This document shows positions 10,022 through 44,872 of a stretch of 50,015 nt of DNA, in pieces (within the stretch, counting starts at the first letter, position 1; every line of letters begins with the position of its first letter). Where the stretch lies: IMG/VR virus record IMGVR_UViG_3300028595_000002, positions 1-50,015 of that record; one strand, 5' to 3'. Position numbers and translations under genes: made by a program. This DNA comes from a virus. Its lineage: Duplodnaviria > Caudoviricetes. The notes beneath the pieces were generated by a model, which worked only from the letters and a program-made list of their open reading frames with translations, had not been told where the DNA came from and ran no database searches.

Positions 10022-12430
10022 CTAAAAGTATTTGAAGATAATCTTAGGTCTTTTTAATTCAAATAACATCCTCATAGCCATACAGTCACTAAAATCTGGG
10101 GATCTTCATAATCTCTCCTTAACTAACTCTTTCCCTTCTATAGCAAACTTTCAATCCTTGTCTAGGTCTTTTATTTTAATCTGTAATAGCTCTTGGGTTA
10201 GTTGCTCCTTAACAAATTCATCACAATTCACATGAACTATTCATAGTTTTATTTGCTCACATAACTTAAAATAACATTGAGATTTTAGATTGGCATAATT
10301 AGCCCTTTTTGCTAAGTCTTTAGTTGCTCTCCTCTCTTCTATAGCTCTAGCATTATTGATAAAACCCCTACATCCTCTAATTTGATCTATTACTCAACCT
10401 CATAATCAATCCTCATCAATTACTATATGGTTTCTTGGGATATTATTTCACATAGAAATACGTATTATTTGCTGTGCCAACTCTTGTAAATCTGTTTTCT
10501 TTTGATGAAAAACCTGTAAAACAGTTAATCATCTCCAAAGCATTATTACGGTTTTGTCATTACCCTTTCTGGCAACATCACAAGATAGATAAAACTTCTT
10601 ATCCTCATCTATAGTAGAGTCTTTCTTGAAAATACTTGAAACTGAATCTATATCCAATAACAATCAATCTTCATCTGAATATTCAAAATTACCGTATAAT
10701 AACCTCTGAACTGTTACGTGATCTCATTTCTTTAAATTATCAACGTATTCTTTCTTGATACTAGGATTATCGGTTACTAAAGCAGGTACAAACGCTTTAG
10801 TGGGTTCTAAATTGCCTTCTTTATACGGTTTGTAGTAGTCATAATAAATCCAATTCCTCGCTGGATTACAAGTAAATAACATTTTAGGTATAGTTTCCCA
10901 ACCTTCACCAGATAAAACCGAAAGTCTTCATCTCAAAACACTGATACATTTGCTGTTGATCTCTTGGGCTTCATCTAAGAATACGCCAGTAAGTCAATAA
11001 CTTCATAATCTGTCGAAGTTAGGATCAGATGGTAAATTCTGTAGGTCAGTTAAAAATATTCGTGATCAATTTTGAAATTCTATTACTCAATCCAAAGCGT
11101 TATATTTGTAAAAAGGCTTCTTTAACCCTAACATCTTTATGATATCAAATAAAGTTATCATAGTTGTTAGTTTTAACCTCTTTAGCTCACATCTTCAAAT
11201 TAACCATTGCGAACCGTTGTACTCTAAGCACTTACTAACTACCCAAAAACATCAGATATAGCTATTATGAGTTACCATGAAATCGTTAGTTATATACAAT
11301 CAATCATCTTTAGAAACTGTAATACATTGTGCTTCTTGTTTTCATATATATTTAATGTTTTTTATAACTAAACCCATTCTACTTCTACCACCTTGATATT
11401 TTGTTCATCTATCTTTTTTTCTTGTTAAATTAAACAATAAAGATCTATCAGACAATGTAACAATAACTTCGTAATATACTCACCGTCTTTTCTTTCATTT
11501 ATAAGTACAAAATTTATTAACAGTAATTAAATTAGCCCTACCTCCTATACTTCTTATTAAATATTGAAAATCTAGTGCTAATTGTTTACTTTTTGCAGTT
11601 AAAGAACATCTTCAGTTTGTTCAAACAGTTCAATCTGTATCCATTAACCCTTTTATACATTGACTCCTAGTATATAGGTCTCCTTCCATTATTTGTCTAG
11701 GTATTTTTTTCTTTTCACATCTAACGCCTTTCATTCATAACTCATTCAAAATATCATTCATTTTCGATCATAAATATCACTTAGCTTTTCTATAACTGCT
11801 AAGGATTCTATAAGCATATTTACGTCAATTGTACTTTGATATAGAAATTCATTTTGGTAACAAACGTTTAAAGCTATCTATTAATTCTTGGTCTTCAGTT
11901 GTAAAAATAACTGCTCCAGTAGTAAGTCATCAATCTCATAATAAAGCACCTACTAAATAAGGATGTAATTTTGTATAAGGTTTTCAAAAATCTAATGCCT
12001 CACATGTTGGAATCTTTATTTTTATTCATCTATCAAAAAAATCCTTTATCTCCCTAAGACTTCTATTAGCTAATGTTTTTTGTCATCTTTTAGGTTTCCA
12101 ACTTAACCATAAATGATCCAAACAACACCTAACCTTAATTCAAGTATCAAACTCAACTTCGTAAATATCTTTTTTTCATTGAGGATGTATTGCTATTACT
12201 TTTGTTGTTCATCAACTTGGACTAATTAAAGATTGTCATATCTTAATCTCTCACATCCTGATCCATCAGTCGGGCGTTAGTATTTTACTATATAAAGGTT
12301 GTGCTTTTCAACCTCTAGCCCCACCTCAATACAATACCTCATTCGTTTTATTGTCATTTAGTAATTGCAAAGCTTGGTACTGCTTAGCAAAAGGCTTAAA
12401 TTCAACGATATGGTTTTCTTGTGATTTCAT
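10022..12430 (-). CDS. terL: Terminase large subunit with intein (802 aa precursor)
   Basis: Walker A LYGGGARGGK/S split by the intein, Walker B VFLDEA, motif III TCNP, nuclease SVDVARKGND and SPDFSD. Confidence 0.92.
11264..12304 (-). mobile_element. Class-3-type intein with LAGLIDADG homing endonuclease (347 aa) in the TerL P-loop
   Basis: Begins AQPLYSKILTPDGW, block B CCLDHLW, LAGLIDADG motifs LVGALLGDG and IKGLMDTDG, block F QCITV, ends DFMVTHN followed by Ser. Confidence 0.9.
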
Positions 12431-12440
12431 ATTAATTAAA

Positions 12441-12896
12441 TTATTCTTCTATCTTAGCATCCTCTACATCCTCTTTCTTATCTTGAGTAGGATTAACTAT
12501 CACAATCTTAGTAGGTGATATAGGCTCTCAATCCCTTCAAGTTACCTCTGAGCGTTTGCTAAACTGATCTTTCAATACCCTTTCCAGATACCATTTGGCA
12601 GTTTCTCCATCCGATAAGTTATCGTAAATAGTCTTCAAGGCTTTCAACATCGGCTTAGCCCTTAGTTGCTCCACCCTTACAGGATCTAGGTGTCAACTCC
12701 TTAGCCAATAATAATAAGTAGTCCTATCCACTCCTATATGCTGACAAGCAGTGGTTACGTTTGCTCAAATGGATAATGCTATTTCTAATTCTGCAATCTT
12801 CCTCTCCCTTGCTTTACTATCCATCCTGAATTTCTTTTGCTTCAATTTAGATTCTCCATCTCTTGATAAATTGGTTTCTTGCTTTTTTCTCGACAT
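12441..12896 (-). CDS. terS: Terminase small subunit (151 aa)
   Basis: HTH ACQHIGVDRTTYYYW, AKWYLER, EVTGRDGEPI; immediately upstream of terL. Confidence 0.8.
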
Positions 12897-12923
12897 TTTT
12901 GTGTTAAAAATAATAATATCTGT

Positions 12924-12952
12924 AATATATATAAGTTTAACTAAAATGTCAA
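12924..12952 (-). promoter_or_regulatory. Sigma70-like promoter for the packaging/structural operon
   Basis: TTGACA-17 bp-TATATT on the minus strand, about 30 bp upstream of the terS ATG. Confidence 0.6.
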
Positions 12953-12962
12953 TTTACTTATA

Positions 12963-13590
12963 ATGGTATGTGCAAAAAATGCACTTTCTAAACAAAAAAG
13001 TATCGATCATTTTGCCTACGCCAACAAAACGATAGAAATACCTAAAAATACACTAACCTATCAACTTGTTTTATTATAGCCTAGTTTTGCCTGTTCGGAA
13101 TTTTCCGCTCAGGCAAAAAATGCCATAACAAACAAAAAAACCCCTTGGTAGGGGAACTGGCTCAAAAAGACTTTCATTATATTAACCAGAAAACACATTT
13201 TCTATAAAAAGGTTTTACATAGCCTAAATCAACTATGTACCTTAATGATAATCTAAATAAATCAAAAATGCAAAACTTTTTACTAAATTAAAGTCAGACA
13301 TCGTCAGACAAGAAAACTACCTAGAAAATAATATAAGAACCCTTAAAAAAATTCATTCTCTACGGTGGGGAGACCTAATGAAAACCTTTGTGGGAGCTAA
13401 AGTATATTTTATAAAACCTAGTAAAACCACTAGCAAAAACAAAGAATCCTTTAAAATAGCAGTTTGGCGTTTTTAGAATTCATTCTCTACGATGGGAGAA
13501 CCTAATCGATTACGAATTCTAAGCGAAAGTTAAAATTACATAAGTAATCCTAATTTTAACCCCGTCGAATTCGACGGGTTTAAAAATATA
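12963..13590. other. Cluster of imperfect palindromes and short repeats
   Basis: Palindromes at 12970-12984, 13006-13033, 13085-13118, 13561-13578; 30-bp direct repeat at 13350-13379 and 13477-13506; GTCAGACA twice at 13293-13310. Confidence 0.8.
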
Positions 13591-13934
13591 TTTGCTCTAC
13601 TAGGGACTTAGCTTATCCATGCGGTTATATGTCGGAAATGGGGAAAAAATTATAGAGGGGGGTATATGGATAGTTCCAGTTATTCTCAATAGGGTATACC
13701 CCCCCCCTTTTTAGCACCTTATCACGTTGGTTGCCAGAATGCCAGTTCTTTAGATTTGGAAAGTATAATATTATGTGTGGTATTCTAAAACTCATTTAAA
13801 GGTTGTTTTTAGAAGACTTATAAATATCTTGGTGTGATTATACCAGAAACTTAAAAGAACCCCCTAAAAAACGATGTCAATACCTGTCTCGTTGTTGTTG
13901 ATGGATTTTTAATGAGTCGAAATGATAATAAAAT

Positions 13935-13962
13935 GGTTCACATAATATATGATATGTTAACC
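13935..13962 (+). other. dif-like (Xer recombination) site
   Basis: GGTTCACATAA-TATATG-ATATGTTAACC fits the 11-6-11 layout of E. coli dif GGTGCGCATAA-TGTATA-TTATGTTAAAT. Confidence 0.6.
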
Positions 13963-14049
13963 AACGACTAACAAGCCACTTAGAGCGAGGGGGAAAGTTT
14001 GACTATTGCTTATTTTATAGTGGTTGCTCCTCCGTTTTAGATTAGCACG

Positions 14050-14076
14050 TTGGCACCTCCGGTGATAAGGTGCTAA
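14050..14076. promoter_or_regulatory. CIRCE-like operator (second, inverted copy at 13711-13737)
   Basis: TTGGCACCT-N9-AGGTGCTAA versus CIRCE TTAGCACTC-N9-GAGTGCTAA. Confidence 0.4.
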
Positions 14077-14142
14077 TTTGTTGACTTTATGTATTTTATG
14101 GGATAATTTAGAATAAAAAAAGTTTTTATATATGTTTGAGAC

Positions 14143-14336
14143 ATCCTAAATTGTATCCTAAAGTATCCTAAATTGTATCCTAAAGTATCCTAAATTGTAT
14201 CCTAAAACCTATCCTAAAATATCCTAAAGTATCCTAAATTGTATTCTAAAGTATCCTAAGTTAACCTAAATCCTAACCTAATACATCCTAACTTCTACCC
14301 TAAAGAACCTTAATCAATATCCTAAAGTATCCTAAT
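14143..14336 (+). repeat. Tandem array of ATCCTAAA-core units (alternating 12 and 10 bp)
   Basis: ATCCTAAATTGT/ATCCTAAAGT units, about 11 regular copies followed by degenerate ones. Confidence 0.9.
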
Positions 14337-14497
14337 GTCTATTTTATAATACCTAATAGTTAATATAAGAAGTGTTGAAAGTATATTTATAGTTTATACC
14401 TTATTATGTAAAAAGTATTCTAAATTAATACTATTAAGTACTTAATAGTATTATATATAATATATTATAGTTTCCTCTCCTTCCTTCTTTATGGCTG

Positions 14498-14547
14498 ACA
14501 CGGACGTTTAGTAAGTGCTAATACACGGACGTTTACTAAGTACTAAT
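14498..14547 (+). repeat. 25-bp tandem duplication
   Basis: ACACGGACGTTTAGTAAGTGCTAAT / ACACGGACGTTTACTAAGTACTAAT (2 mismatches). Confidence 0.85.
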
Positions 14548-14672
14548 ACAAGGAAGATTCGCTCTCTGTTCCTAATCTATGACCTTTCGGAGTTTTCCTA
14601 AACCTCAAAACTTCCTTTGTTTATGCTATACTTAAGTAAAACTAAAAAAACTAAAAAAAGTATAATAAAAAC

Positions 14673-14701
14673 TTGTATTTACTAAAAAGATATATTATAA
14701 T
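14673..14701 (+). promoter_or_regulatory. Early sigma70-like promoter P1
   Basis: TTGTAT-17 bp-TATAAT with upstream A-tracts; near-identical to P2. Confidence 0.75.
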
Positions 14702-14751
14702 ACTTATGTATTCAAAATAAGAATACAAAATTTATATTTTAAAATTATATT

Positions 14752-15120: not shown

Positions 15121-15206
15121 GGCTTCTTTTTTTTTGTCTTAAATAAGCTATCTTTTAAGTAAAACTAAATAAAACTAAAAAAAACTAAAAAAACTATAAA
15201 AAAAAC

Positions 15207-15235
15207 TTGCATTTACTAAAAAGATAGATTATAAT
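15207..15235 (+). promoter_or_regulatory. Early sigma70-like promoter P2
   Basis: TTGCAT-17 bp-TATAAT; spacer ttactaaaaagatagat is almost identical to that of P1. Confidence 0.75.
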
Positions 15236-15925: not shown

Positions 15926-16582
15926 ATGAAAAATTTTAATGATATGACAGAAGACGAACAAATAAAGGAAGTTAAAAAGAATTGGTGCATCATGGAATTT
16001 ATAGCGAACCCAAGCAAAAAGGTAATTTTAGAGGCTGTAAAAAGGCACTGATACTCCATACAATGGATTCATAATCCTAGTGAAGAAGTGAAATTAGAAG
16101 CTGTAAAAAAAAATTGAGAAGCCATACAATGGATTCATAATCCTAGTGAAGAAGTGAAATTAATGGCTGTTAAAAAAAATTGATATTCCATACAATGGAT
16201 ACATAATCCTAGTGAAGAAGTGAAATTAGAAGCTGTTAAACAAATTTGATATTCCATACAATGGATTCATAATCCTAGTGAAGAAGTGAAATTAGAAGCT
16301 GTAAAACAAAATTGATGGGCTATACAACAGATACATAATCCTAGTGAAGAGTTAATGTTGGAAGCTGTAAAACAAACTTGATATTCCATACAATGGATTC
16401 ATAATCCTAGTGAAGAAGTGAAATTAATGGCTGTTAAACAAAATTGAGAAGCTATACAATATATACATAATCCTAGTGAAGAGTTAATGTTAGAGGCTGT
16501 TAAACAAAATTGAGAAGCTATACAACGGATTCATAACCCAACACAAAAAGTAAAAGATATGGCAAATTGAAAAAGTACTTAA
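15926..16582 (+). CDS. DUF4116-like 22-aa tandem repeat protein (218 aa)
   Basis: 66-bp repeats encoding AVKQNGxxIQWIHNPSEEVKLE; the conserved Gly is TGA. Confidence 0.8.
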
Positions 16583-18981: not shown

Positions 18982-20175
18982 ATGAAATCTGATAACAAAA
19001 TAAAAGGTTACTGTGTAATACCAGTTGTAATACTAAATGATGAAAACCTAAAAGCAAAAGAACGCCTTCTTTATGGCAATATTTATAGTCTATGCCGTTC
19101 TTGTTGATATTGTCGGGCAACTAATAAATATTTAGCAGATCTAATAAATGACTATTCTTGATGAAAAAAAACACACAAAGATACAGTTTCTAAATATATA
19201 GCTAGTTTACAGAAAGCTTGATATATCAAGTGTGAGTATGTATACGAATGAAAGAAGATTAAAGGTAGAAAGATCTATTTAATGGGTGTAACAGACCTTG
19301 CAACATGAATATATTATGAACTATCAGAGGAAGAAGTAATGACCAGACTAACTACTAGGTCTACAGAGCTAGGGGGGTATAGCTCTACAGATCATGAGGG
19401 TATAGCTCTACAGATCAAAGGTAACAAGATAAACAATAACAAAATAAATAATAAAAAAGAAAAAGAGGTCTCTCTTTCAAAAGAAGAAGAAAAAACACTT
19501 GCTAATATTAATTCTAACCCTAGCAAAAACTCTAAAGAATCTAAGGAATCCCCCATCTCTCTGGATGTAGCAAACGTAGAAGAAGCTCAACAGTCTGTAC
19601 AGACTACAAGTAACCCCTTACGTGTGAACAAAGAAAAGAAAAATTGCGTTAAAAGAAAAGAAATAAAGTCATTGCTACCAGTAGGCACTACAGCAGAAAA
19701 CATAAGCGATGAACAATTTCAAGAGCTTTGTAGAAAATTTAGGACTCTATCAGAATGAGATAGAAAAATTTTGCAAGAAAAACTAAAAAGTGTTAGCATT
19801 AAATTAATAGAATACTGGAACGATAAATCAGATGAGTTTATACCTTGAACCAAAATAAAATATTGAATATGAAAAGTAAGATTATCCGCACCTTGAACAC
19901 AAAAAAAAGTATATGATGGATTATATACCTTGTTAATAAAAGAGAAATTTACGCTTAAAGACCTTAAACATTGTTTAGTTGTTTATTTGTCTGAATTAGA
20001 GAAATCCCCAGATAGGTTTCGTATTTGATGACTTGTAGCATTTATAACACAAAAAAACTGAATGAAATTAAAAGTCACAGAAAGCATAACAGATAAACCA
20101 AAGCAAAAATACTCACAATTCAAACAAGACACAAAAAACGACCCATATTGACGTGCAATCAGAATAAAAGGATAA
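18982..20175 (+). CDS. Replication initiator (HTH_36 / lambda-O-like, 397 aa)
   Basis: VIPVVILNDENLKAKERLLYG..GYC(CGG)ATNKYLA; internal iterons. Confidence 0.8.
19375..19417 (+). repeat. Iteron-like direct repeats inside the initiator (putative origin)
   Basis: GGGTATAGCTCTACAGATCA twice, 23-bp period, followed by an A-rich tract. Confidence 0.6.
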
Positions 20176-21546: not shown

Positions 21547-22551
21547 ATGGAAAATATAAATCAAGACTTAAATAACCTATCTAAAAATGTAGATAGGAAT
21601 ATAGAGAATAAAAACTTTATGAGTTTAATGGATCTATTCGAGAAAACTAAACTTGAAAGAAGGTCTAGGAACATAAATAATATCATAAGGTATTGAATAG
21701 GTTTGTTAGATGATTATTTATGATGAATATTAGAAAATGAATTAGTAGTAGTAGGAGCTTGAACAGGAATTTGAAAAACAGAGATAGCAAATTCTATTGC
21801 TATCCATAACGCTAAAAGAGGGTTTAAAGTAAACCTATTGGCTCTTGAATGAGACCCTTGAGAAATCTATTATAGATATATTCAATGAGAGATAAATAAG
21901 AAGTTGGCTTGAATGAAGTATATCAAGCCACAAGAATTTAGATTAAATCTAGTGGATATAGAGGCAATAGAAGATGAAGTGGTAGCAAATACTCCACAAT
22001 CCTTAAGAGATAACTTAAAGATATATTGAAAAAAAGAAATACCTAATCAATCAAGGTTAGAAGATATTTTTACTGAATCCGTAGAAGATTGTGATTTAAT
22101 AGTTTTAGATCATCTGCATTACCTAGATTATAATTGAGAATCAGAGGCTAGAGGTATTACAGGAATTATGAAGATGGTTAAGATGGCAACAGAAATTTTA
22201 AGAGTACCAGTGGTGTTAATATCACATCTATCAAGGAACTTATCATGAAGACCTAAGATATCAGACCTTCATTGAAGCTCAAATATAGAAAAAAACGCTA
22301 ATACTGTAATTTTACTTAACCCTTGTGATTCATCTGAACTAGTCAATAATTTAGAAGATTGAAAATATTATCGATGAACTGAAATAATAGTTGCTAAGAA
22401 CAGAACAGGTGTGCCAGTACCCGCAGTTTTTGAGACTCATTTTAACTTAAAAACTAAGGAATATATGAATTGAGAAGACTTTAATTTACTATCCCCAGAT
22501 GAGACTAACAGGGTTTCTATAGATGATAAAATAGACTCTATAGTATTTTAG
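21547..22551 (+). CDS. dnaB: DnaB-like replicative helicase (334 aa)
   Basis: Walker A VVVGAGTGIGKT, IVLDHLHYL, ISHLSR, DLHGSSNIEKNA, IIVAKNRTG. Confidence 0.88.
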
Positions 22552-24475: not shown

Positions 24476-27400
24476 ATGGAAAATAAAATAAAATCTAAAA
24501 AACAGATACAAAACGAAAGAGACCTCTTAACAATTGGGGAGGTTTCGGAAACTACATGAGCTACCACTAAACAAATTATAAAGTGGTGTAGAGAAGGTAA
24601 AATTACTAAAAAGTTCGTTAGTCAGAAGGTTATGTTGTTACCCTCGGCGATACAAGAAGTTTGTCAACTAATAACAGAGGATTTAAATTGAATAGATAAT
24701 GAGACCAATTTTTCCTCCTATATGACATACGAAGAAACACAAAAGTTTCTAGATATATCTATTGATGAAGTTTTACTTCTAATAAATCATAAGTTTTTAA
24801 AATATCATGAAACATGATTAATATGAAAAGAGAGTGTATTAAGATTATCAGGCAAAATATATCGTAGAAGCCAATATTATGATTATTTTAATATCTCCGA
24901 AGCATCCAGACATCTTACATTAACAAAGCCAGAAATTAATGTATTATTAAAAGATAATATTATAAACAAAACAATTAAATGATATTTCTTACGAAAACAG
25001 GACGTAGTATATGAGGTATTAATATATCCAGAGGATATTGTGAAGCTAGAAACAGCAATTAAATATATAAAAAAAATTAAAGATTTTGATAAATTAACAC
25101 CTAAAGAACGATTAGATAGTATTAAAAGCTTTTACAAACAATCTTATAATAAATGAAAAGAATTACTAGAAGATTGAGAGGAGACAATAACCCAAGCGGA
25201 GGCAGCGGAACTTTGTCGAGTTTCAACGACTTTAATTTCGAGAGCGATTAAAGATAAAAAAATAAAAACAAAAAAGGTAGGTAAATGTGTAAAACCCTTA
25301 AGGAGTTCTGTTTTAGAATTTAAAAAAACTTTAAAATTTAAAAAAGATTACCCTGGTTATTTAACTCTAACAGAGGCTAGTAAAGAATTAGGTTTTAGTG
25401 ACAATTCTATAAATAGTCGAATAAAATCATGAGAAATAAAAGGAGCTATAAAAAATGCAATTCGTGATACTTGAGGTTCTTGTACCCTAATCCCCCTATC
25501 AGAAGTAGATAAACTTAAAAAGACCTTAAAATTTCAAAAAGATTACCCTGATTATTTAACTATAACAGAGGCTAGTAAAGAATTAGGTTGTAGTGACAGG
25601 GCTATAAAAACTAGAATAAAATCATGAGAAATAAAAGGAGCTATAAAAAATGTAATTTTTGATACTTGGGGTTCTTGTACCCTAATCCCAAAATCAGAAG
25701 TAGATAAGCTAAAAAAAACCTTAAAATTTCAAAAGGACTATACTAATTATTTAACTTTAAAAGAAGTTAGCAAAGAATTAGGTTGTAGTGGGTGAACTAT
25801 AAATAGGCGAATAAAATCATGAGAAATAAAAGGAGCTATAAAAAATGTAATTCGTGATACTTGAGGTTCTTGTGTTCTAATCCCCCTATCAGAAGTAGAT
25901 AAACTTAAAAAGACCTTAAAATTTCAAAAAGATTACCCTGATTATTTAACTCAAATAGAGGTTGGTGAAGAATTAGGTTGTAGTGGCTGGACTATTGGTA
26001 ATAGAATAAAATCATGAGAAATAAAAGGAGCTATAAAAAATGTAATTTTTGATACTTGAGGTTCTTGTACCCTAATCCCCAAATCAGAAGTAGAGAACCT
26101 TAAAAAACAATGGCAAAAAAATAAAACAGACCACACAAGAGACAATCAAGATAGTATTAAAAGCTTTTACAACCAATCTTATAATAAATGAAAGGGATTA
26201 CTAGAAGACACGGAAGTTACTTTGACACTGCAAGAAGCCGGGGATCTTTGTTGAGTTTCATGTACCTATATGTTTGAAGTAATTAAAAATAAAAAAATCA
26301 AAACAAAAAAGGTAGGTAGTTGTAGAAGACCCTTAAAAAGTTCTGTTTTAGAATTTAAAAAAACTTTAAAATTTCAAAAGGACTATACTAATTATTTAAC
26401 TTTAAAAGAAGTTAGTAAAGAATTAGGTTGTAGTATAGATGCTATTTCTGAGAGAATAAAATCATGAGAAATAAAAGGAGTTATAAAAAATGTCATTTCT
26501 AATAATTGAAAGTCTTGCACACTAATTCCCAAATCAGAAGTAGAAAAACTTAGAAAGACCGTAAAAACTCAAAAGGACTATACTAATTATTTAATTACAA
26601 AAGAAGTTAGTAAAGAAATAGGTTGTGGTACAACGTATATTTATAGTAGAATAAAATCATGAGAAATAAAAGGAGTTATACAAAATGTCATTTCTAATAA
26701 TTGAAAGTCTTGCACACTAATTCCCAAATCAGAAGTAGAAAAACTTAGAAAGACCGTAAAAATTCAAAAGGACTATACTAATTATTTAACTTTAAAAGAA
26801 GTTAGTAAAGAAATAGGTTGTGGTATAACGTATATTTATAGTAGAATAAAATCATGAGAAATAAAAGGAGTTATACAAAATGTCATTTCTAATTCTTGAG
26901 GTTCTTGTACCCTAATCCCCCCATTAGAAATAGAGAAGTTAAAAAAACAATGGCAAAAAAGCAAACAAAAACCTATAGAAGACAATCAAAACACTGTCAA
27001 ACCATTATTAATTGACAATGAGGAACCTAAAAAAGAAGAAGAAGAAATCAGAATACCGAAAGAAGCAACAGAAAACCAAAATAAAATACCAATTAACCAA
27101 GTAGATATGGATAAAGAAAGTAAAGAAGAACTAGAAAGTAATATAAAGTTTTTCTTCAAAGAGATCGAAGAGAAGTACCAAAATAACATATTTATACCTA
27201 ATAGTTTAGAATGAATATTTAATTTACGGAACAGTAGGCTTAAAGGTATGGGAGAGATAGACAATATAATAGACTTAGCAAATGAAAAACAAATAGAAGA
27301 AACTAGACAAGTTATTAGACCTTTTACAGACAAAGCTTTGTCTACTTGAATCACTAAATACCTTAAATGGATTAAAAATATAAAGAAGAAAGGTAGGAGT

Positions 27401-28072
27401 TTTTACATAAAGAGTCTTGTCGACTTTGTGACTTCTAGGAATGGACTGATAAAGTTTTTAAGGGGATCTGAAGGGATAGATAAGATATTTACTCCAGATT
27501 TCCAAGATAGAGAACCTTTGTATACATCAGAGCCTCAGATAGCAGGTAAGAAGATAGAGCAAATGCTTTGTGATGTCTTAGAGGGTAAACTAGATGTCGA
27601 CAACCCAAAAGACGAGTACGAGACATTAATAAAACAGGTTGTCAATAATAAACAGTTCGACAAATTGTTGACAAGAGGACTGTTTTGGAAAAGATATAAA
27701 AACATAGACAGACAAAAAGAGTATATCAATAAAGCAGGTAAGAAGTATGCGATTACTGATATAGAGCTAAAGGATACTGTAATAGATGTAAAAGCCACTA
27801 GGTCGTACACTATAGAAGAAGTAAAAGCTAAGTATTACGATCAGATGTTGAAATACTTTAATTGCTCTTGAGGTAAGAAGGTAGTGATCGTTTATATTAA
27901 TATGAGACATCCTTATTGAGTTGATATAATCGAATATGACTTTTGAATTAAGGAGCGTTTACAATATTTTTGGAACTACATTAAGTTTATTTTTTTAAGT
28001 TATTTTATTAAGAAGAACTGTAATAAGAATTGTAGGAATTGTAAAAATTACCATTGGTGTAACTCGAAATAG
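24476..28072 (+). CDS. Tandem-HTH array protein fused to a C-terminal PD-(D/E)XK (Cas4/RecB-like) nuclease (1198 aa)
   Basis: Single frame with TGA=Gly joining track ORFs 26270 and 27428; seven 65-aa repeats plus about five divergent HTHs; TDIELKDTVIDVK, YYDQMLKY, C-terminal CNKNCRNCKNYHWC. Confidence 0.85.
25322..26941 (+). repeat. Coding 195-bp tandem repeats (4 + 3 copies) within a ~1035-bp higher-order duplication
   Basis: tcatgagaaataaaagga at 25427, 25622, 25817, 26012, 26462, 26657, 26852; leader gatagtattaaaagcttttac at 25115 and 26150. Confidence 0.95.
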
Positions 28073-29509: not shown

Positions 29510-29769
29510 AGTTTACCGATTCTATTATAGAACCTTATGAGGATTATATCGCCTTTGTAAATATAGGAGAAGTAACTTTACAGTTGCCAGAAGAAAATGA
29601 ATGAGATTTTGTAACCTTAGAAACATTGTTTAAAAAAACAAAGAAAAACGTATTAAATGCTATGGCAGGTGATAAAAAAAAATTTAGAAGAGCTTTGTCT
29701 GATAATTTAGATATTAGCTCTGTCTTAGTTGATTGAAATTTATTTATTAACAAAAAAGCATGATATTAA
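29494..29769 (+). CDS. Hypothetical protein (91 aa)
   Basis: Open with TGA=Gly; overlaps both neighbours. Confidence 0.55.
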
Positions 29770-30332
29770 GTGATAGAACCATAAAAAGCCTGATAATCAA
29801 TAAAGAAATTTGATTATCTTCCCCAAAATTTGATATAGATTTTAAAACACAAATCTGACCGTGTAGCTTAGATTTAAGACTAATGGATATTATAAAAATA
29901 TACAAGGTAGATAACTATGTAATAGATACTAGAGAAAAGGGAGACTATACGACGAAAACTGCCTATATAGAAAATAAGGGATTTATATTAAAGCCTTGAA
30001 GGTTTATATTGGCTTCTACAATAGAAAAAATACGAATACCTGACTTTTTATGTGCTAAGTGTGAGGGAAGATCTTCTTTATGAAGACTAGGGGTTCAAAT
30101 TCATGCAACTGCTTGATTTATAGATGCTTGATTTAAATGAAATATTACTTTAGAGATTAGCAATATTTGATGTAGACCAGTTAAGATATTTGCTTGAATG
30201 AGAATTTGCCAAATAGTATTTTCTTTATTAGATAAGCCATCAGAAGTTCCTTATGGGGATAGGGAGGGAAGTAAATACCAAAACCAAACTTTACCAACTG
30301 CTTCAAAGCTATATTTAGACAAAGATTTATAG
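29760..30332 (+). CDS. dcd: dCTP deaminase (190 aa)
   Basis: MILSD, GPCSLDLRL, CEGRSSLGRLG, AGFIDAGFKGNITLEI, GMRICQI, SKYQNQ. Confidence 0.93.
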
Positions 30333-30638: not shown

Positions 30639-31448
30639 ATGAACACAAATACAAATAAATACCCTATAGAACATTTAAGCCCTAGTTCTTTTAGATTGTT
30701 TTTAAATAATAGATTCGAGTTCTATAAAGCTTATATAAAAGGCGTGAAAAACTTTAAAACCTCTGAAGCTATGTTTACTTGAACTGTTTATCATAGTATA
30801 TTAGAGATGTTTTATAACCAAGAAAAAAGGGATAGTGCTTTTTTTGATATGGAAGAAGAACAAATTTTGTCTATAGCAAACGCAATAGAAGAAGAAAGAG
30901 AAAACAATATAGATAAAAAAGATGAAAAACGGATAGATAGGGTTGTTGCTAGTGTAAAAAAACTATTAACTTTTTATCAATCAGAGCTTCCAGACTATAA
31001 AGAGATATTAGGTATAGAATTGCTATTAAAAAATACCCCCAAGGGTATAACTATACCTTTTAAGGGTTTCGTGGATCTAGTAGTTAAGGAATGAGATGAA
31101 ATAATTTTAGTAGATCATAAAACAGTATCTAGATTTTCAAATAAAATCTCACCTTGATATATGATACAGGCTAATATGTACTATTTACTATACGTAACAG
31201 AATACAAACAAGCACCTAAATATATGTATTTCGATGAAATAAAGAAGTCTAAAAACAGAGACGGATCTCCTCAATTGAGAACTGTAAAATATAAATATAA
31301 TCAAAAAGATATGGTCTGATTTGCTAGGTTATTAGTATGAACCCTAAGGCAATTAGAGGTCTTTGGAGATAATCAAGATTTTTATTTACCTAACCCTTTT
31401 GATATGTTAAATGGAGAGCAATCGTTTCTTGAATATATAGAAATATAA
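30639..31448 (+). CDS. PD-(D/E)XK RecB-like exonuclease (269 aa)
   Basis: HLSPSS, GTVYHSILE, KGFVDLV, LVDHKT, IQANMY. Confidence 0.85.
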
Positions 31449-31977: not shown

Positions 31978-32571
31978 TTATTTTTCTAACTTAGTCCCTT
32001 GTTTATTTAATAATTTAACCAATCTTCCCATCATTATAGCAACTTCTTTTCTTGAAATTGGTTCATCTGCTCTTTCTCAATTCCGTAATCCTAGATCAAA
32101 CGCCAATTTATCACTTCATTTTTTTACCATCTCTTTTTTATTAAGATATATTTTAAAGTCCTCTACATTAAAGTTCTTTCAAGGACAACTCTTATAACTA
32201 GCAAATTTATTATGTCATTCTATTATTAATTTTCAAAACTGCTTTTGTAACTCTAAACAAATCCCTTTTAAGGACTGTAATTGCTCTTGTGAAGGTTCTT
32301 GTATATCTAGGTTACCACAAAGACAAATTCAAACTGATTCAGTATTGATCCTCCGATTACTAGCATGATAACCTATTTCATTTAGGCTTCTTGTATGTAG
32401 TATTTTTCAGTTTCTTCATATTATATAATGGTAAGCACAGTAGTTTCCCAAAACATTAGCTTTTTCATGTAGTCGTTTTCGATGAGATACATTACAAGAT
32501 TTTAATAACAGATCTGCGTTATCTTGAACGACTGCGGCGTGATGGATAACTACGTATTTAATGCTTCTCAT
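31978..32571 (-). CDS. Endolysin: N-acetylmuramoyl-L-alanine amidase (Amidase_2) with SLH-like C-terminus (197 aa)
   Basis: YVVIHHA, AYHYIIGRNG, GYHA, SVGICLCGN, EGHNKF, KSCPG. Confidence 0.88.
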
Positions 32572-33502: not shown

Positions 33503-35008
33503 TTAAGCTGATATATCTGAATATTTTAAATTAATTTTTTCTCAATCTGTTCAAGAAGCTCCATTGGTAGATACTGGAGTTCCACCTCATCATCAAGTTC
33601 ATCAACTTCCTCAAGTACTAGTTAAAGTTCAAGAAAAATTATTAGTATAACCAACTAATATAATTGCTCCTCAACTTCCACCTCATCATCAACCACCTCA
33701 TCATCAAGAAGCCCCTCAATTAGCACCAGTTCATCAATCACCACCATCTCATCAGTCTTCTCAAACGGTAGTTAAGTTTCCAGTTCAAGCGAAAGTATTT
33801 GCTAATATAACAATCCCAGCTCATGCTCTTCAAGGTACTCATCATCAACCACCTCATCATCAAGCTACTCAAGTATCGACATAGGATCAATTAGTTCAAT
33901 TAGCACCCAAAAGTCATCAAGATCCTCAATTAGCCGAGTCTCATGTAGCGGTTCTAGTAGCACCACCACCTCAACCTCATCAGAATATTCATGGCATTCA
34001 ACACCTAAATAATCAAGAAGCACCGTTGGTTATATCTTGAACAGTACCTCAATCCCCACCTTGAGAAATATTGATAGTTCAAGCGTTTCATCATCTTCAT
34101 CAATCCGCTATTCAAGTACCTGCTCCACTACCTCATCATCAATATCAATAGGTGCTACCAGTTCATCAAGTGGAATTTCATCATCAATTACCTCAAGTTC
34201 CTACATTATTACAACTAGCTTCTATTCAGAGTAGATTAGAAGTGATGTAGCTTTTATCTAAATAAGCACCTGTTAAATCTATATCTCAATCAATAGTACA
34301 AGTTCAAGAACATTTTAATCTTAAAACTCCAGTAGTGTCAGTAGTAGATAAAACCGCACCTGCAGATATATTAATAGATGAATAATTATAATCAGTATCC
34401 AAACTTAGATTAGTCGTTCAAGAAGTTATATTTAAGACTCCATCACTACCATCTCAAAATAATGCAGGGGTAGAAGAAACAGATGTTAATCAACTTCAAT
34501 CTCAAGTAAAAGAATTTCCTATAAAGTCAGTTTGTCAAGCTGTTCAAATTGTATGAGAAGAGGTTGAATCAGTCGCTATATCTATATCTCATTTAATTTT
34601 TACAAATTCCCTTTCATCTGTAATAGATCAAGAACTAATACTAGCAAGTGGTATATAGTTACTGCTAGGGTAACTTGTATCTGTTTGTATAGTCCCTATT
34701 CAAGTTCAATCTGCATTATTTCAAGATCCATCATTTATATTAGCTTGAGTAACTTTTATAAACACTTTCTTAGTTCAAGAGGTATCGATAGTGACAGATG
34801 AAGTATTTTCATAGGTTACTAAAAAACTTTCTTCTGGACTAGTATTAGTTCTAGTGACTTCTATTATAGCTTTTCAAGCTGATACAGAGTTTGTCGTAAC
34901 TTCTAATCAAGTTATTACTCATTCTTTTATTACGGAACTTCAGGGAAAACTAAAATGTTTATCTTGATTAATATTCGTTCCGTTTAGTAGTCATATTATT
35001 TCTGTCAT
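33503..35008 (-). CDS. Glycine-rich tail/fibre protein (501 aa)
   Basis: Runs such as TGA TGA TGA GGT GGT TGA TGA TGA GGT give poly-Gly; LFGDGSDG motif. Confidence 0.8.
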
Positions 35009-35026: not shown

Positions 35027-36844
35027 TTAAGATTGATACCGCTCTAACTTATGATAACCCGTATTTTCCCATTTTATATAAAAATTAGTTTGTCCTCCAA
35101 TAGAGATGAAACCATACTTTATTATCTCTAAATCAATTGTTCTATCAAGATTAGGTGTTGCATATACTCTACTAATTAATAGATCTGTATTGTAAGTGCG
35201 AATAACATCAAAATCTAAATAAAAATTATATAAATTACCATTTAATCAATTTACTTTTACTAGTTGCGTATTTGTTGCAGAGGATACCGTACTAGTTGCT
35301 GTACAATCATTAGCTTTATCTCTATGCCGTTCATGTATTGTTCAATCTGTCCAATCAGAACTTATTGATAATGTTACACTCCTTGTTCAATAAATACTAC
35401 CATACAATCTTACCCTAGTTCTTGAATGTTCTGCATAGCCTATAGGAATGGCACTACTAACGTAATCAGTCCCATAAGTGGCAGCTATACTACCACTATT
35501 AGTCCACATATTGACTCAAGAATAATCTATCTCAATATCACTTGCATTATTAGTAACCGTAATATTACTTCAAGCTTTGATAGTTTTTAATTCTAAATCA
35601 GTTCAAGTTTTTTGTTTGAACACATCTCAATCTCAAGTTCATACATTACTAGCAGTATTTACTTCTCAACTAGTCAATCAAGTGGTTGCTATCTCAATAT
35701 CACTTGCATTATTAGTAACCGTAATATTACTTCAAGCCTTGATAGTTTTATATTCAAAATCAATTCAAGCCTTTTGCTTAAAAACTTCTCAATCGCCAGT
35801 ACCTACATTTGAACCAGTATTAGCTTCTCATACAGAACTAGCAGCTGATATTTCAATATCACTTGCATTATTAGTAACCGTAATATTAGTTCAAGCTTTG
35901 ATGGTTTTTAATTCAAGATCAATTCAAGTTTTTTGCTTAAAAACCTCTCAATCTCAAGTTCATACATTACTAGCAGTATTAACTTCTCAACTACCACCTC
36001 AAGCTGAAATCCTATCATCTATTTCATCGGCACTTAATAAGTCAGTAGTTCATGTCCCAGAGTCATTCAAAGCTATTCAAGAGTCTTGTATATCTCATCA
36101 AGCATCTCTAGTTACAAAATTTCAGTTAGTTCATCATGTTATTATATTCGCTTTATCTGCAATTGTAGCAACTAGATTTTTATCACTAGTAGTATAGTCA
36201 TTAGTGGTTTTTACGTAAGTTGTACCATCGTCCATATTATCCATATCAAAAGCAGATACATTTTTACTCGTAGGATCATAGACTGATTTATCCATTTTCC
36301 CCCCTATTGTAGCAACTAAATTTTTATCACTAGTAGTATAATCGTTAGTAGTTTTTACATAAGTAGATCAATTTTCCATATTATCCATATCATAAACGTC
36401 TACCTGTTTATTTGCAGTATCGTAAGTAGTTTTAGTCATTTTTCATGAAATTGTCGCTACACTGCTTTTTTCTGAGTCTGTATAATTATTTTCTGTTTTT
36501 ACGTAAGTAGATCAATTTGTCATATTATCCATATCAAAAGCAGATACATTTTTACTGGTAGGATCATAGACTGATTTATCCATTTTGTCAGATATAGAAG
36601 CTATGGCATTTTTATCAGATGTAGTATAGTCGTTAGTAGTTTTTACGTAAGTTGTACCATCGTCCATATTATCCATATTATAAACATCTACCTCTTTAGA
36701 AGATGGATCATAGGTAGATTGCTCCATTTTATCATTATTTAGATTATCGAGATTTGTATTTATTTTTTGTCATCCCTCATATACTGTATCTCAACTTGCA
36801 GTATTAGGTCAACTTCCAAAATCTAAAGGTGTAATTGTAGTCAT
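35027..36844 (-). CDS. Repeat-rich tail fibre/baseplate protein 2 (605 aa)
   Basis: N-terminus SGDTVYEGGQKINTNL; four 48-aa KMDKSVYDP repeats (144-bp period); three ~53-aa NTASNVGTG repeats. Confidence 0.8.
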
Positions 36845-36866: not shown

Positions 36867-38408
36867 TTATTGCCACCGAGTATATTTATGATATCAATCA
36901 CTTATCCAATGAATATAAAACTCACTAGATACAGAAGCTCAAAAATTTGCATAATGTAATATATAAGCGAATGTATTTTTAGCAACACCATGTACAAAAC
37001 TAACAAAGGCATGGTTAGCATCTATTTTCATCACTTCTATCTCTATTAATACGTCCCATAAACTTCATCATTGGGTAAATAATTTAGTATATGTTTGAGA
37101 AGCACCATAAGTTATATCCCTATCAGATAATCTTTCTAGTTTATAATCGTGGTCTGTGCTGTCAGTTCCTCAAGAAGCAAAAGAAAGTCTTAGTTCTGTT
37201 ATACCATCTCAATAAATTGAAACCCTAGTAGGTACATAACTAGCTAGAGGTATAGCAGATGAAGTATAACTGGTAGAGTGATAAGTTCTTGAAACAGATC
37301 CAGTAGAACTCCAACGAGAAGCGGAACTGCCTAGTCTTTGATCTATTCAATATAAATGAGATGTTAATTGGTCGGTTCAATCTACCTCTGTCGGAGTAGA
37401 AGCTGGTGTATAATTTGTTGGAGACCAAGTTATATTTAATTTATCTCAATCTATTTCATCAGTTCATCAATCTATATGAGAGCTACTATGAGTAGTAGGA
37501 GTTCTAGAATCTGATAATCTGGAATCATTTCATTGACAGATAGTTCAGGAACTAGTTCAGAAGTTTTTATTAAAAGCTGTATTAGGGGTAACTGCTTGTA
37601 TAGTTTTAGAATTAACTCAATCAAATACTGCTATATCGTTATTGGCGTTTGTAGTAGGTCAAAGAATATCTCATGCTCAAGTAGTAGAAATTTCAATATC
37701 ACTTGCATTATTAGTGATAGTAATATTACTTCAAGCTTTTATTGTTTTTAGTTCAAGATCAATTCAAGTTTTTTGTTTAAAAACTTCTCAATCTCAAGTT
37801 CATATATTACTAGCTGTATTGCTTTCTCATACAGATCAAGTCGCAGATATTTCAATATCACTTGCATTATTAGTGATAGTAATATTACTTCAAGCTTTAA
37901 TTGTTTTTAGTTCAAGATCCACTCAAGTTTTTTGTTTAAAAACCTCTCAATCTCAAGTTCATACATTACTAGCTGTATTATCTTCTCAACCTGCACTAGC
38001 AGATATCCTCGAGTCTATTTCATTAGAACTTAATAATTGAATGTTTGAACTGCCTGAATCATTAATAGAGTATAAAGAGTCCTGAATATCTCCACCACTT
38101 CAAATAGATACCAAATTTCACGAAATACCACCACTTATTTTATTTGCCTTATTATCTATGGTATCCACTAGGTTTTTATCTGTATCAGTATAATTATTAG
38201 CTGTTTTTACATAACTAACTCAATTATCCATATTATCCATATTGAAACAGTCAACAGATTTATTTCATGGATCATATACTAACTTTTCCATTTTGTCATC
38301 ATTGATAGCTTCAAAGTTATCATTAATTTTTTGTCATCAATCTCTTAATGGATCTCAAGTATTGGTATCTGGTCAGGTTCAAAGGTCTAAGTATTTTATT
38401 GTACTCAT
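36867..38408 (-). CDS. Repeat-containing tail fibre/baseplate protein 1 (513 aa)
   Basis: N-terminus TGDPLRDGGQKINDNF (T4 gp9/gp10-like); paralogue of the next gene. Confidence 0.8.
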
Positions 38409-39768: not shown

Positions 39769-40616
39769 TAGAAGTATTGATATCTATATAAAATATCTAT
39801 AGTAACTGTTCAAGATGAGTCATAATCATCTCATAAAAGTACTAAAGTATTTGCTCAAGGATCTAAGTATACAAAATTACTTCAACTAGTCCTATAAGAC
39901 ATTACATTTATTCATTCATCAGTTACTATAAAAGGTCTTTCTCTGTTATCTATTATTAGATTTGTGGTAGTTTTAGTTACTCAAAAGAATCTTCAATTAA
40001 CAGTATTTAATACTTTAGGATTAGTAATAGAACCAACTACATTTATTAAACAAGGACTTTTAAAATTTCAAGAATTAGTTATTTCTATCTCTCATATTAA
40101 ATCATTTAGAATAGTGCCTAATCTAGTACCTAAAGTTGTTCATCAAAAATAGCCTTGTAATCCATTAGAATATAATAGAGCTTGTCATGAATAACTTGAT
40201 TCTTCTGAATATAATTCAAACTTAAAATCTATTACATCATCTGATCTGGTATCTACTTGTAAAGGAGTATAAACCTTAGCCATACATCTAACATCTCTAC
40301 CACCTTCATCTGTCCAAAGTAACTCATAAAATCATCTATTGTCTAAAGTTGGTGTACCTTCTGGCTTTATTAGATTAGATAATTCGATATACGCCGTTTG
40401 TCTTTCTGCTTGAGTATCTCAAAATATACTTCAATTAAATGTAAATAATCTTCAAGAAGCTACAGTATTTCCAATATAAGATCAATGGTAGTTAACCCTA
40501 TCTGAAACGTTGCTTTTTAGTGTTGCGTTATATACAACAGTTGTGGCTGTGAGCTGAACAGTAACACTATCACTAGATAAATACGTTCAATTGTAGCTCC
40601 AATTTTGTGTTCTCAT
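39768..40616 (-). CDS. Distal tail (Dit-like) protein (282 aa)
   Basis: Directly after the tape measure gene (TAATG overlap); FVYLDPGANTL motif. Confidence 0.7.
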
Positions 40617-43600: not shown

Positions 43601-44872
43601 AACTTCTTTATTAATAACCTTGAAAGTTTTTCTAATAGCTGTACCTCAAGCCTCCGCCTCAACTCATAAAGAACTAAAAGCTGTTGCTATTCATAAAATA
43701 TCTTGTGTTGATACTCCTGCTATTTGTGATATAGCCGAGGTTCTATTGGCAAACTCTAGTATCTTAGATTCTGTAGTCGCCGAATTATTTCATAAGTCAA
43801 TTAAAGCCGCACCTAAGCGATCAAATTGATTTTTGGGTAGTTGTGTTACATTAGCTAATTTTGCGAATCATTCTGCGGCTTCTTCAGTAGTTAATCTAGT
43901 ACTAGCACCTACTTGTGCGATAACTCTAGTAAATTCTTTTAGATTTTCTATAGGAATATTTAATTGTCATCCCACTTCTGCGATACCTGCAATCTCTTCA
44001 AAAGTTAAAGGTATTTCTTTTGTAAGATCCTTTAGTTGTGATTTTAGTATTCCTAATTGTTCATTTGTAGCGTTTACTGTTTTCTCTACTCAAGCAAACG
44101 CCGACTCAAAAGATATAGCGGTAGTAATAGTTCAAGTAAAGAATTCTTTTATTTTTTGTAATCAAGTTGCAACTGCCACGAATGCCACGAATCTTTTTGT
44201 TGCCAGTCAAAGAGAACGTGAGAATTCTCTAATATTTACCTCTACTCATCAAAATAACTTACCTAAAACTGAAAGATCCTTTTTTCATGTCCTTAAAAAA
44301 TTTCTAAGCTCTCTTTTTGCTTTGGTAAGATCTTGCTTCAATAGGTTTATATCTGCCTTTATTTGTAGTTTTTTATCTTCTGATAATGTTTTGTCTTTTA
44401 ACAATTTCTTAGCTCGTTTTATTTTATCTTCTACATCTACTATATTTAATGATAACTTAATAGCTTGTGGGTCTTTTATCCTAGAAGTAAAACCCTCTAT
44501 ATCATCAGTGATTCTTTTTAAATCATCACTAGCTTTTTTGGTATCAAATCTAACCTTACTAGGTTCTCAAATTTTAGATTTTAATTTGCTTACCTGTTCC
44601 TCTAATTTTTCAAATTTTAGATTTAACTCTTCTGCTCCTCTATTTCTACCTAATCTAAGTAAGGTAGATTCTAGTTTACTAACTTCTTTATTGATTTTCT
44701 TAAACTGATCTTTTCCTAAAGTAACCCCTAAAGAGTTCAGTTTCTTAAAGGTTCATATTAGTTTCTCTAGTTTCTTTTTAAAAACTGATATTTGTTTATC
44801 TGCCTGATCTATTGAGTTGTTGAAGCTTTGGGTTTCAACCTCAAGTTTTATCTCAATCTTTTCCTCCTGCAT
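40616..44872 (-). CDS. Tail tape measure protein (1418 aa)
   Basis: TP901-type core AISFESAFAGVEKTV, GGQLNIP, LGVEAEAGGTA; long coiled coil. Confidence 0.9.

Follow-up and report, generated by a model that had tools for sequence, protein, structure and literature searches.

Tandem winged-helix units in a code 25 phage protein differ most at predicted DNA-facing positions

The window analysed here is the whole 50,015-nt stretch of virus record IMGVR_UViG_3300028595_000002, a complete 50,015-bp phage genome with direct terminal repeats and a GC content of about 29%. Our subject is a single gene at 24476-28072 on the + strand, encoding a 1198-aa protein with seven tandem 65-aa units. The units have the fold of Xis/BldC/MerR-type winged helix-turn-helix (wHTH) domains, and their differences are concentrated in the first two turns of the predicted recognition helix, with lesser hot spots at the wing tip and around the start of helix 1. 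By analogy with filament-forming proteins of this fold, the protein may be a covalent head-to-tail chain of wHTH domains which would read one long asymmetric DNA site and bring its C-terminal domain there, a proposal that we regard as evenly balanced between right and wrong.

The array region is split into short open reading frames (ORFs) by translation with table 11, and a single intact ORF of 1198 aa with 28 in-frame TGA codons is obtained when TGA is read as sense. TGA = Gly (code 25) scored above TGA = Trp (code 4) in four of five conserved Pfam families (DnaB_C, 95 versus 76.4 bits; DCD, 150.4 versus 116.7 bits; PDDEXK_1, 60.6 versus 50.2 bits; Amidase_2, 78.8 versus 57.2 bits), the fifth being a tie (Laminin_G_3, 64.8 versus 64.6 bits), and the Walker A motif of DnaB was regained when read under code 25. 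The use of code 25 by this phage was thereby verified. An earlier sequence-only reading of this DNA had quoted helix strings that presupposed TGA = Gly, and the scores bear out that choice. It has been reported that code 25 is common to phages of Absconditabacteria and Gracilibacteria (PMC10746230), so the host likely comes from these lineages. As a separate observation, the 501-aa ORF at 33503-35008 (-), which matches no Pfam family, holds 82 TGA codons and becomes extremely Gly-rich in its C-terminal half under code 25, showing heavy TGA use for glycine in this phage.

Tandem Repeats Finder (TRF) reported a period of 195 bp at 25320-26107 (4.0 copies, 86% matches) and at 26367-26893 (2.7 copies, 93% matches). 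In frame, these regions hold the seven 195-bp units that the earlier reading had described, grouped as four plus three, and both arrays are preceded by a diverged leader HTH and closed by a conserved tail (E-x-LKKQWQK...DNQ). The leader-plus-array block is itself present twice (25114-25399 versus 26149-26434, 231 of 285 nt or 81% identical), as had also been noticed. The gene is organised as follows:

24524..24658, + strand: N-terminal HTH_17 module A (aa 17-60), with a Pfam HTH_17 match at 1.4e-6 and a six-frame match
24701..25075, + strand: two candidate degenerate HTH modules (aa ~76-200), 24-26% identical to unit 2 in the alignment
25112..25312, + strand: leader 1, a diverged wHTH with a shorter wing (aa 213-279), placed by an HTH_17 match at 25190-25327 and by alignment
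25313..26092, + strand: array 1, units 1-4 of 195 bp each, starting at 25313, 25508, 25703 and 25898
26093..26347, + strand: post-array tail and leader 2 (aa 540-624), a paralogue of leader 1
26348..26932, + strand: array 2, units 5-7, starting at 26348, 26543 and 26738, with the TYIYS helix common to units 6 and 7
26933..27112, + strand: second copy of the post-array tail (the copies are 71% nt identical), then a Lys/Glu-rich linker
27113..28069, + strand: orphan C-terminal domain (aa 880-1198), whose only relative is in a twin protein
27770..27979, + strand: weak match to a RecE-like (PD-(D/E)XK) profile, covering D1104-V-K1106 ... Q1123-x3-Y1127
28019..28060, + strand: C-terminal four-Cys cluster C-x3-C-x2-C-x5-C (aa 1182-1195), read from the sequence

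A six-frame scan placed HTH_17 at eight sites in the gene, namely units 1, 2, 3, 5, 6 and 7, leader 1 and the N-terminal module. To these eight modules supported by a hidden Markov model (HMM), unit 4 and leader 2 can be added from their clear paralogy, while the two N-terminal stretches at aa ~76-200, which gave no HTH family match when run alone, are counted as candidates.

The seven units share 30 invariant columns out of 65, and their pairwise nucleotide identity is 0.74-0.92 (mean 0.82), so that the earlier description of the units as close to identical in DNA was too strong. The helix strings given there (FSDNSINSR, CSDRAIKTR, CSGGTINRR, CSGWTIGNR, CSIDAISER, CGTTYIYSR and CGITYIYSR) were reproduced exactly with TGA = Gly. 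Columns 30, 31, 32, 34 and 35 carry four, six, four, five and five different residues among the seven copies, respectively, and I33, R36, I37, K38, S39 and G40 are constant in all of them. In these five hot codons, which fall at unit start +87 to +104 in the units of array 1, 14 of 15 nucleotides are variable compared with 57 of 180 elsewhere (Fisher p=3e-6), and the mean nucleotide identity is 43.8% inside against 85.5% outside. Of 58 amino-acid changes needed at minimum, 19 fall in the best 6-column window (column-shuffle p=0.0005). Substitutions in the aligned units are thus clustered far beyond chance rather than evenly spread. The claim that variation is concentrated in the recognition helix stands as regards this clustering, but the helix is not the only place, since lesser hot spots were found at columns 51-55 (pN 0.345, pS 0.052) and columns 14-22. 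Because units 6 and 7 are a single nucleotide apart across codons 28-36, there are effectively six helix types. Under code 25, single TGA/TGG transitions give Gly/Trp exchanges, as seen at column 31 (unit 3 versus unit 4) and column 54 (unit 2 versus the others). The exposed Lys/Glu columns 5, 8, 11, 25, 38, 41 and 43 are all invariant, and exposure alone therefore fails to explain the hot spots.

The family and structure searches agree on the kind of domain. The protein matched Pfam HTH_17 (PF12728) at 1.1e-50 (170.2 bits against a 27-bit cut-off) in eight stretches, TIGR01764 'excise' at 3.2e-39 (133 bits against a cut-off of 28.8) in six stretches, and PHROG 66 "excisionase and transcriptional regulator" at 8.8e-46. 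Unit 2 together with the following linker was modelled with AlphaFold2 (AF2), giving a mean predicted local distance difference test (pLDDT) of 78.9, strands at 16-18, 46-50 and 56-61, and helices at 19-26, 30-39 and 62-77. The modelled topology (strand, helix 1, helix 2, hairpin, helix 3) is that of a winged helix of the Xis/BldC/MerR type, and a 16-residue helix bridges the unit to the next one in the model. The top Foldseek matches in the PDB were Pukovnik Xis (TMt 0.74-0.75), TraN, CvkR, RacA-DNA, BldC-DNA (TMt 0.73 and 0.80, root-mean-square deviation 1.7 A), RdfS, MtaN-DNA and Tn916 Xis, with probabilities of 0.9-1.0 and E-values of merely 0.04-0.5 for so small a domain. Three narrower labels were rejected. 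As a classical MerR regulator, in which the wHTH is followed by a coiled-coil helix for dimerisation and a domain that binds an effector, the protein falls short (PF00376, 23.5 versus 28.2 bits; PF13411, 20.6 versus 21.6 bits, over profile positions 2-27 of 69), only the HTH part being matched. The label of a classical excisionase or recombination directionality factor was dropped because the complete 50-kb genome has no match at E<=1 to tyrosine or serine recombinases (PF00589 and PF00239). A further label, 'mad1' of the MADS defence system, reflects HTH similarity only.

On the AF2 model, the hot columns 30-32 and 34-35 would form the first two turns of the recognition helix (helix 2, columns 30-39), columns 51-55 would make up the tip of the wing, and helix 1 would begin at columns 18-22; all three elements are predicted to face DNA in this fold. 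For BldC, whose first two helices span residues 14-21 and 25-34, base contacts by K26 and R30 and phosphate contacts by T27, T29 and K33 are described (PMC5859096). With an offset of +5 from BldC to the unit, columns 31 and 35 are the counterparts of K26 and R30, and columns 32, 34 and 38 those of T27, T29 and K33. The most variable columns 31 and 35 thus correspond, by helix register, to the two base-contacting residues of BldC. A profile alignment with lambda Cro, which is weak (E=0.39), puts columns 30, 31, 34 and 35 on Q27, S28, N31 and K32, which we take to be base-touching residues. The variable positions are therefore predicted to face DNA and not to turn away from it, and the earlier assignment of this segment to the turn and base-contacting helix of MerR/Xis-type HTHs is supported by the HTH_17 match, the modelled helix 2 and the Foldseek matches to Xis, BldC, RacA and MerR proteins. 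The same mapping bears on the suggestion that the modules do not bind DNA and instead act as decoys or as repeats that bind a protein, such as a host factor, through their variable face. The orphan state of the C-terminal domain leaves room for it and nothing direct speaks for it; all family and fold matches are DNA-binding wHTH proteins, and R36 and K38 are conserved where BldC contacts phosphate, so we hold it to be very unlikely.

Why the helix varies is a separate matter. Nei-Gojobori-type counts gave a pN/pS of 1.42 in columns 30-35, a ratio that rests on about six codons and is not significantly above 1, against 0.60 over the 57 codons outside columns 28-35, and the minimum non-synonymous to synonymous changes were 19:1 in the hot codons versus 39:17 elsewhere, a contrast of modest significance (p=0.03). 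The pS is also raised in the helix (0.37 versus 0.21), so that the helices may merely be older than their homogenised flanks, and a simple dN/dS is invalid because gene conversion breaks its assumptions. The diversifying selection proposed in the sequence-only reading is thus suggested by both contrasts and unproven with so few sites. Positive selection, preservation of old helix differences and relaxed constraint fit these counts alike, which makes them suggestive only; relaxed constraint is disfavoured because so many exposed Lys/Glu positions are invariant.

These counts matter for the view that the protein is an architectural coat of low specificity, in which a pre-assembled filament would bend or compact DNA or occlude promoters, chiefly through indirect readout, and the helix differences would be drift tolerated where exposed positions are under weak constraint. 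The nearest folds indeed belong to wHTH proteins that are architectural or form filaments, BldC and RdfS make few base contacts and follow no strict consensus, and the helix pN/pS of about 1 is what relaxed constraint predicts. However, variation is focused on five of 65 columns beside invariant exposed charged residues, the non-synonymous excess is larger in the hot codons (19:1) than elsewhere (39:17), all three DNA-facing elements vary together, and the hot codons have stayed far less alike than the rest despite gene conversion all around them. We therefore consider such a coat rather unlikely.

The units are mosaics in which the nearest neighbour changes from segment to segment. Units 2 and 4 are identical over codons 1-13; over codons 14-27 unit 3 differs by 1 nt from unit 5 and by 7-9 nt from units 1, 2 and 4; units 2, 3 and 4 are identical over codons 37-50; and over codons 51-65 units 5 and 6 are identical while unit 7 is 12 nt away. 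Three helix-1 types (A in units 1 and 2; B in units 3, 5 and 7 and nearly in unit 6; C in unit 4) are reassorted against four wing types (R in units 1 and 3, F in units 2 and 4, S in units 5 and 6, S' in unit 7). Such mosaicism points to gene conversion or unequal exchange between units and agrees with the earlier idea of shuffling by recombination, as does a twin protein that is short of exactly one unit. A target of a diversity-generating retroelement was ruled out, as reverse transcriptase (PF00078) gave no match at E<=10 in the phage genome and the hot-codon differences have no adenine-specific pattern. A second recently expanded repeat protein of this phage is encoded at 15926-16582 (+), where a 218-aa product consists of a 22-aa repeat (66-bp period), present about 7.7 times and recognised as DUF4116 (1e-36).

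The twin (P0002, on a 33.7-kb contig from ENA) is the only close relative. Allowing for its code-4 translation, it equals the protein of the window (P0004, from JGI/IMG) at every residue except for one lost unit, leaving six, and the loss is clean, with units 6 and 7 fused inside their identical stretch. The six-unit form may reflect a genuine unequal crossover or a collapse during assembly. This raises the further suspicion that the repeat structure or unit number is an artefact of short-read assembly: the two assemblies disagree in unit number, and the junction lies in the stretch identical between units 6 and 7, as repeat collapse predicts. Yet the 3.6-kb frame is intact, units of 74-92% identity are distinct enough to assemble, and the two separate sources agree at every other residue. 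Collapse could alter the number of units and could not create the pattern of variation, and we find an artefact highly improbable.

The C-terminal domain of about 310 aa sits after the Lys/Glu-rich linker. An exhaustive HMMER search with it over 1.84 billion representatives returned one match, the twin, and no Pfam, NCBIfam, PADLOC or PDB sequence match of credit was obtained; the best Pfam family was PA14 at 17 bits, below the cut-off, and the best PDB entry was Plexin at E=0.7. A single-sequence AF2 model was unusable (pLDDT 34.5). By eye, the domain contains D1095, D1104-V-K1106, Q1123-x3-Y1127 and the terminal C-x3-C-x2-C-x5-C, a set that presumably resembles RecB/Cas4-type nucleases with an iron-sulfur staple; the catalytic core of PD-(D/E)XK enzymes is D...(D/E)xK, carried on an alpha-beta-beta-beta-alpha-beta fold. 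PHROG 434 ("RecE-like recombination exonuclease") matched this stretch weakly (E=5e-4 and 1e-3), and in a six-frame scan with phrog_434 it was the only match in the genome (E=1.3e-4, 15.4 bits). In post hoc shuffles the nuclease-type motif arose in 9%, the Cys motif CxxCx5C in 0.13% and both in 8e-5. Two points speak against a nuclease: the idea rests on a PHROG match of 15-20 bits and a motif noticed post hoc, and PDDEXK_1 (PF12705), Cas4 (PF01930) and YqaJ (PF09588) gave no match to the domain at E<=10 in a genome-scaled scan. A BLASTP comparison with the PDDEXK_1 protein of the same phage was not significant. From these motifs and profiles the domain may tentatively be called a possible nuclease, although the opposite is the more probable.

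We infer DNA binding, per-unit specificity, a target and an effector activity for this protein along the following lines. The scaffold of the 65-aa unit, including the bridging helix, would be held alike by gene conversion, while the three predicted DNA-facing elements (start of helix 1, first two turns of the recognition helix and wing tip) differ from unit to unit and are reassorted between units. Modules would follow one another along the double-stranded DNA, roughly one for each helical turn, like the protomers in the non-covalent filaments of Xis, BldC and RdfS. The 16-residue bridging helix, combined with a contact set of its own in each module, suggests that the chain should read one long asymmetric site: each module would recognise its own short subsite, and the joint target would measure about 70-120 bp. 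The chain would then bring to that target the orphan C-terminal domain, possibly a PD-(D/E)XK nuclease with a Cys4 metal site. The earlier notion of a repeat-to-DNA recognition code can be kept as a hypothesis. Its strongest form, a 'winged-helix code' written in columns 30-35 plus the wing tip, retargeted by recombination and coupled to a C-terminal PD-(D/E)XK nuclease that would be taken to a long unique site and act in a TALEN-like manner on host or rival DNA, seems unlikely to us.

Besides the thin counts for the helix, several points weigh against the covalent chain with its own specificity in each module. Per-unit specificity, and with it any code, may be low because BldC/MerR-type domains make one or two base contacts, and because RdfS and BldC partly use indirect readout. 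BldC is reported to make few base contacts and to follow no strict consensus (PMC5859096), and RdfS forms head-to-tail superhelical filaments with partly indirect readout (PMC11963761). The alignment behind the AF2 model is made up of this protein's own 12 modules only, and the BldC mapping follows the register of the helix starts without superposed coordinates. Unit 4 alone reached only E=0.19 for HTH_17 and leader 2 alone had no match. Finally, the protein is a single natural instance with one near-identical twin.

A possible target lies in the same genome. A 1.85-kb non-coding gap (12900-14750) lies between the - strand ORFs, the last of which stops at 12896, and the early genes on the + strand, and at 14143-14340 it holds about 18 copies of ATCCTAA(A) spaced alternately by 12 and 10 bp (TRF: period 10 x 11.8, period 22 x 5.3). 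A 25-bp repeat (2.3 copies) is found at 14498-14554, and AAAACTAAA repeats at 14638-14659 and 15156-15208. Scans for Rfam families and tRNAs were negative there and in the rest of the 50,015-nt window. The gap probably serves as an origin, for packaging or as a switch region, and HTH proteins are candidates to bind it. It is conceivable that the array binds the iteron cluster as an origin-, packaging- or switch-region protein, since the iterons recur with the period of the DNA helix and their number is similar to that of the modules, the gene is located in the replication module, and BldC-type wHTH proteins are reported to bind 9-bp direct repeats head-to-tail (PMC5859096). Near-identical iterons, however, need identical readers, whereas the modules differ exactly at the contact residues. 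A homo-oligomeric binder fits better, such as the 151-aa ORF at 12441-12896 or the HTH_36 protein at 18982-20175, and we judge iteron binding by the array to be decidedly unlikely. The 151-aa ORF, on the - strand beside the iterons, matches no Pfam family; at 12672-12758 it weakly resembles HTH_17 (E=0.005), and its location suggests a possible small terminase subunit.

The repeat-array gene starts 16 bp past the preceding + strand ORF and closes the + strand early/replication module. The annotated neighbours are:

18982-20175: HTH_36 protein, early/replication module
21547-22551: DnaB-like helicase, early/replication module
29760-30332: dCTP deaminase, early/replication module
30639-31448: PDDEXK_1 protein, early/replication module
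31978-32571: Amidase_2, - strand
40616-44872: minor-tail (tape-measure-like) protein, - strand

Other parts of the genome were also inspected. The 802-aa ORF at 10022-12430 (-) was read from its sequence as a putative large terminase with an intein-like insert, its sole Pfam-confirmed part being a LAGLIDADG_3 homing-endonuclease domain at aa 259-327 (1.2e-9). Two paralogous ORFs at 35027-36844 and 36867-38408 (-), with internal repeats of 159 bp and 144 bp (e.g. NTASNVGTGDGEVFKQKTGIDLELKTIKAG), look tail-fibre-like and match no Pfam family. Two Laminin_G_3 (concanavalin-like) proteins at 1749-5960 (-) and 48256-49932 (-), which share long near-identical stretches, sit in the record ends of higher GC (0.37-0.39 versus ~0.29), and just 7 of the 558 codons of the second are TGA. 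The pair may be paralogous receptor-binding proteins that differ in origin.

Relatives of the array protein are few. Word-indexed protein searches with the C-terminal domain and the array, in the near and shorter length ranges, returned only the twin and one distant protein of 455 aa (P0003, E=1.4e-6), which is the only distant sequence relative. No locus related by the C-terminal domain, the array or the neighbouring DnaB was found in viral contigs, and none of 50,697 GenBank phages was matched by megablast or tblastn. A degenerate DNA pattern with in-frame TGA hit one viral, four metagenome and seven genome sequences, all by chance and without HTH context. Proteins of the P0003 type, which combine zinc ribbons with about five tandem HTH_17 domains, are likewise multi-HTH_17 chains and occur in standard-code organisms; unlike the phage protein, their modules are old and diverged, with no super-repeat, and they do not have its C-terminal domain. 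In the five members of this cluster (P0003 and P0005-P0008, at least 89% identical), sub-lineage differences are concentrated in the turn, recognition helix and wing of HTH modules 1-2, and modules 3-5 are near-invariant, which by analogy would be a loose parallel to module-wise retargeting.

Among characterised systems, BldC, the Xis proteins of lambda and Pukovnik, and RdfS have the same fold, with a recognition helix that lies in the major groove and a wing that lies in the minor one. Successive protomers of the BldC/RdfS type are reported to sit about one DNA turn apart on direct repeats (PMC5859096, PMC11963761), and given the covalent linkage a similar head-to-tail arrangement is plausible for the phage chain. 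In contrast to these 55-90-aa monomers, which assemble non-covalently from identical subunits, the phage protein consists of 10-12 fused modules with differing predicted contact residues, and it has a tethered extra domain of 310 aa and no recombinase partner in the phage. A closer precedent for tandem modules is TraN of plasmid pIP501, for which a solved structure is described with two wHTH domains in one chain that use different contact residues on asymmetric half-sites (PMC6158623). TraN, also found by Foldseek, resembles the phage protein in having tandem wHTH domains in one polypeptide with differing recognition-helix contacts. It differs in that its two diverged domains form a pseudo-dimer, as an internal-dimer repressor, and do not belong to a long series of near-identical units that recombine.

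TALE repeats and arrays of C2H2 zinc fingers, such as that of PRDM9, are likewise built of tandem near-identical repeats under concerted evolution, with variation at a few DNA-contacting residues and unit numbers that shift by unequal recombination, and their code of one repeat to one subsite is proven. The TALE repeat is a 34-aa helical hairpin and the C2H2 unit a 28-aa zinc finger, folds unrelated to wHTH and found in different hosts, so only the evolutionary pattern is common, and a code is conjectured for the phage array. A TALE-like modular repeat (33-35 aa, helical, with a two-residue determinant and one base per repeat) was rejected for the phage protein itself, the units being 65-aa wHTH domains. 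HTH_17 chains (P0003), the two-module TraN and the same evolutionary pattern in TALE and zinc-finger folds are thus already known, and a limited literature search found no description of near-identical recombining wHTH units with differences at DNA-contact positions. If the modules have separable specificities, nature would have solved modular DNA recognition a third time, besides zinc-finger arrays and TALEs, here with the DNA-binding fold that is commonest in prokaryotes and in a phage whose likely hosts are bacteria of candidate phyla not yet routinely cultured. The array would then offer a possible new programmable scaffold and a clear microbial case of concerted evolution with diversity kept at contact residues, and a fused nuclease would also point to a phage weapon or homing enzyme of a new type. 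On a conservative reading, too, the protein would indicate that filaments of the Xis/BldC type can be hard-wired into a single polypeptide.

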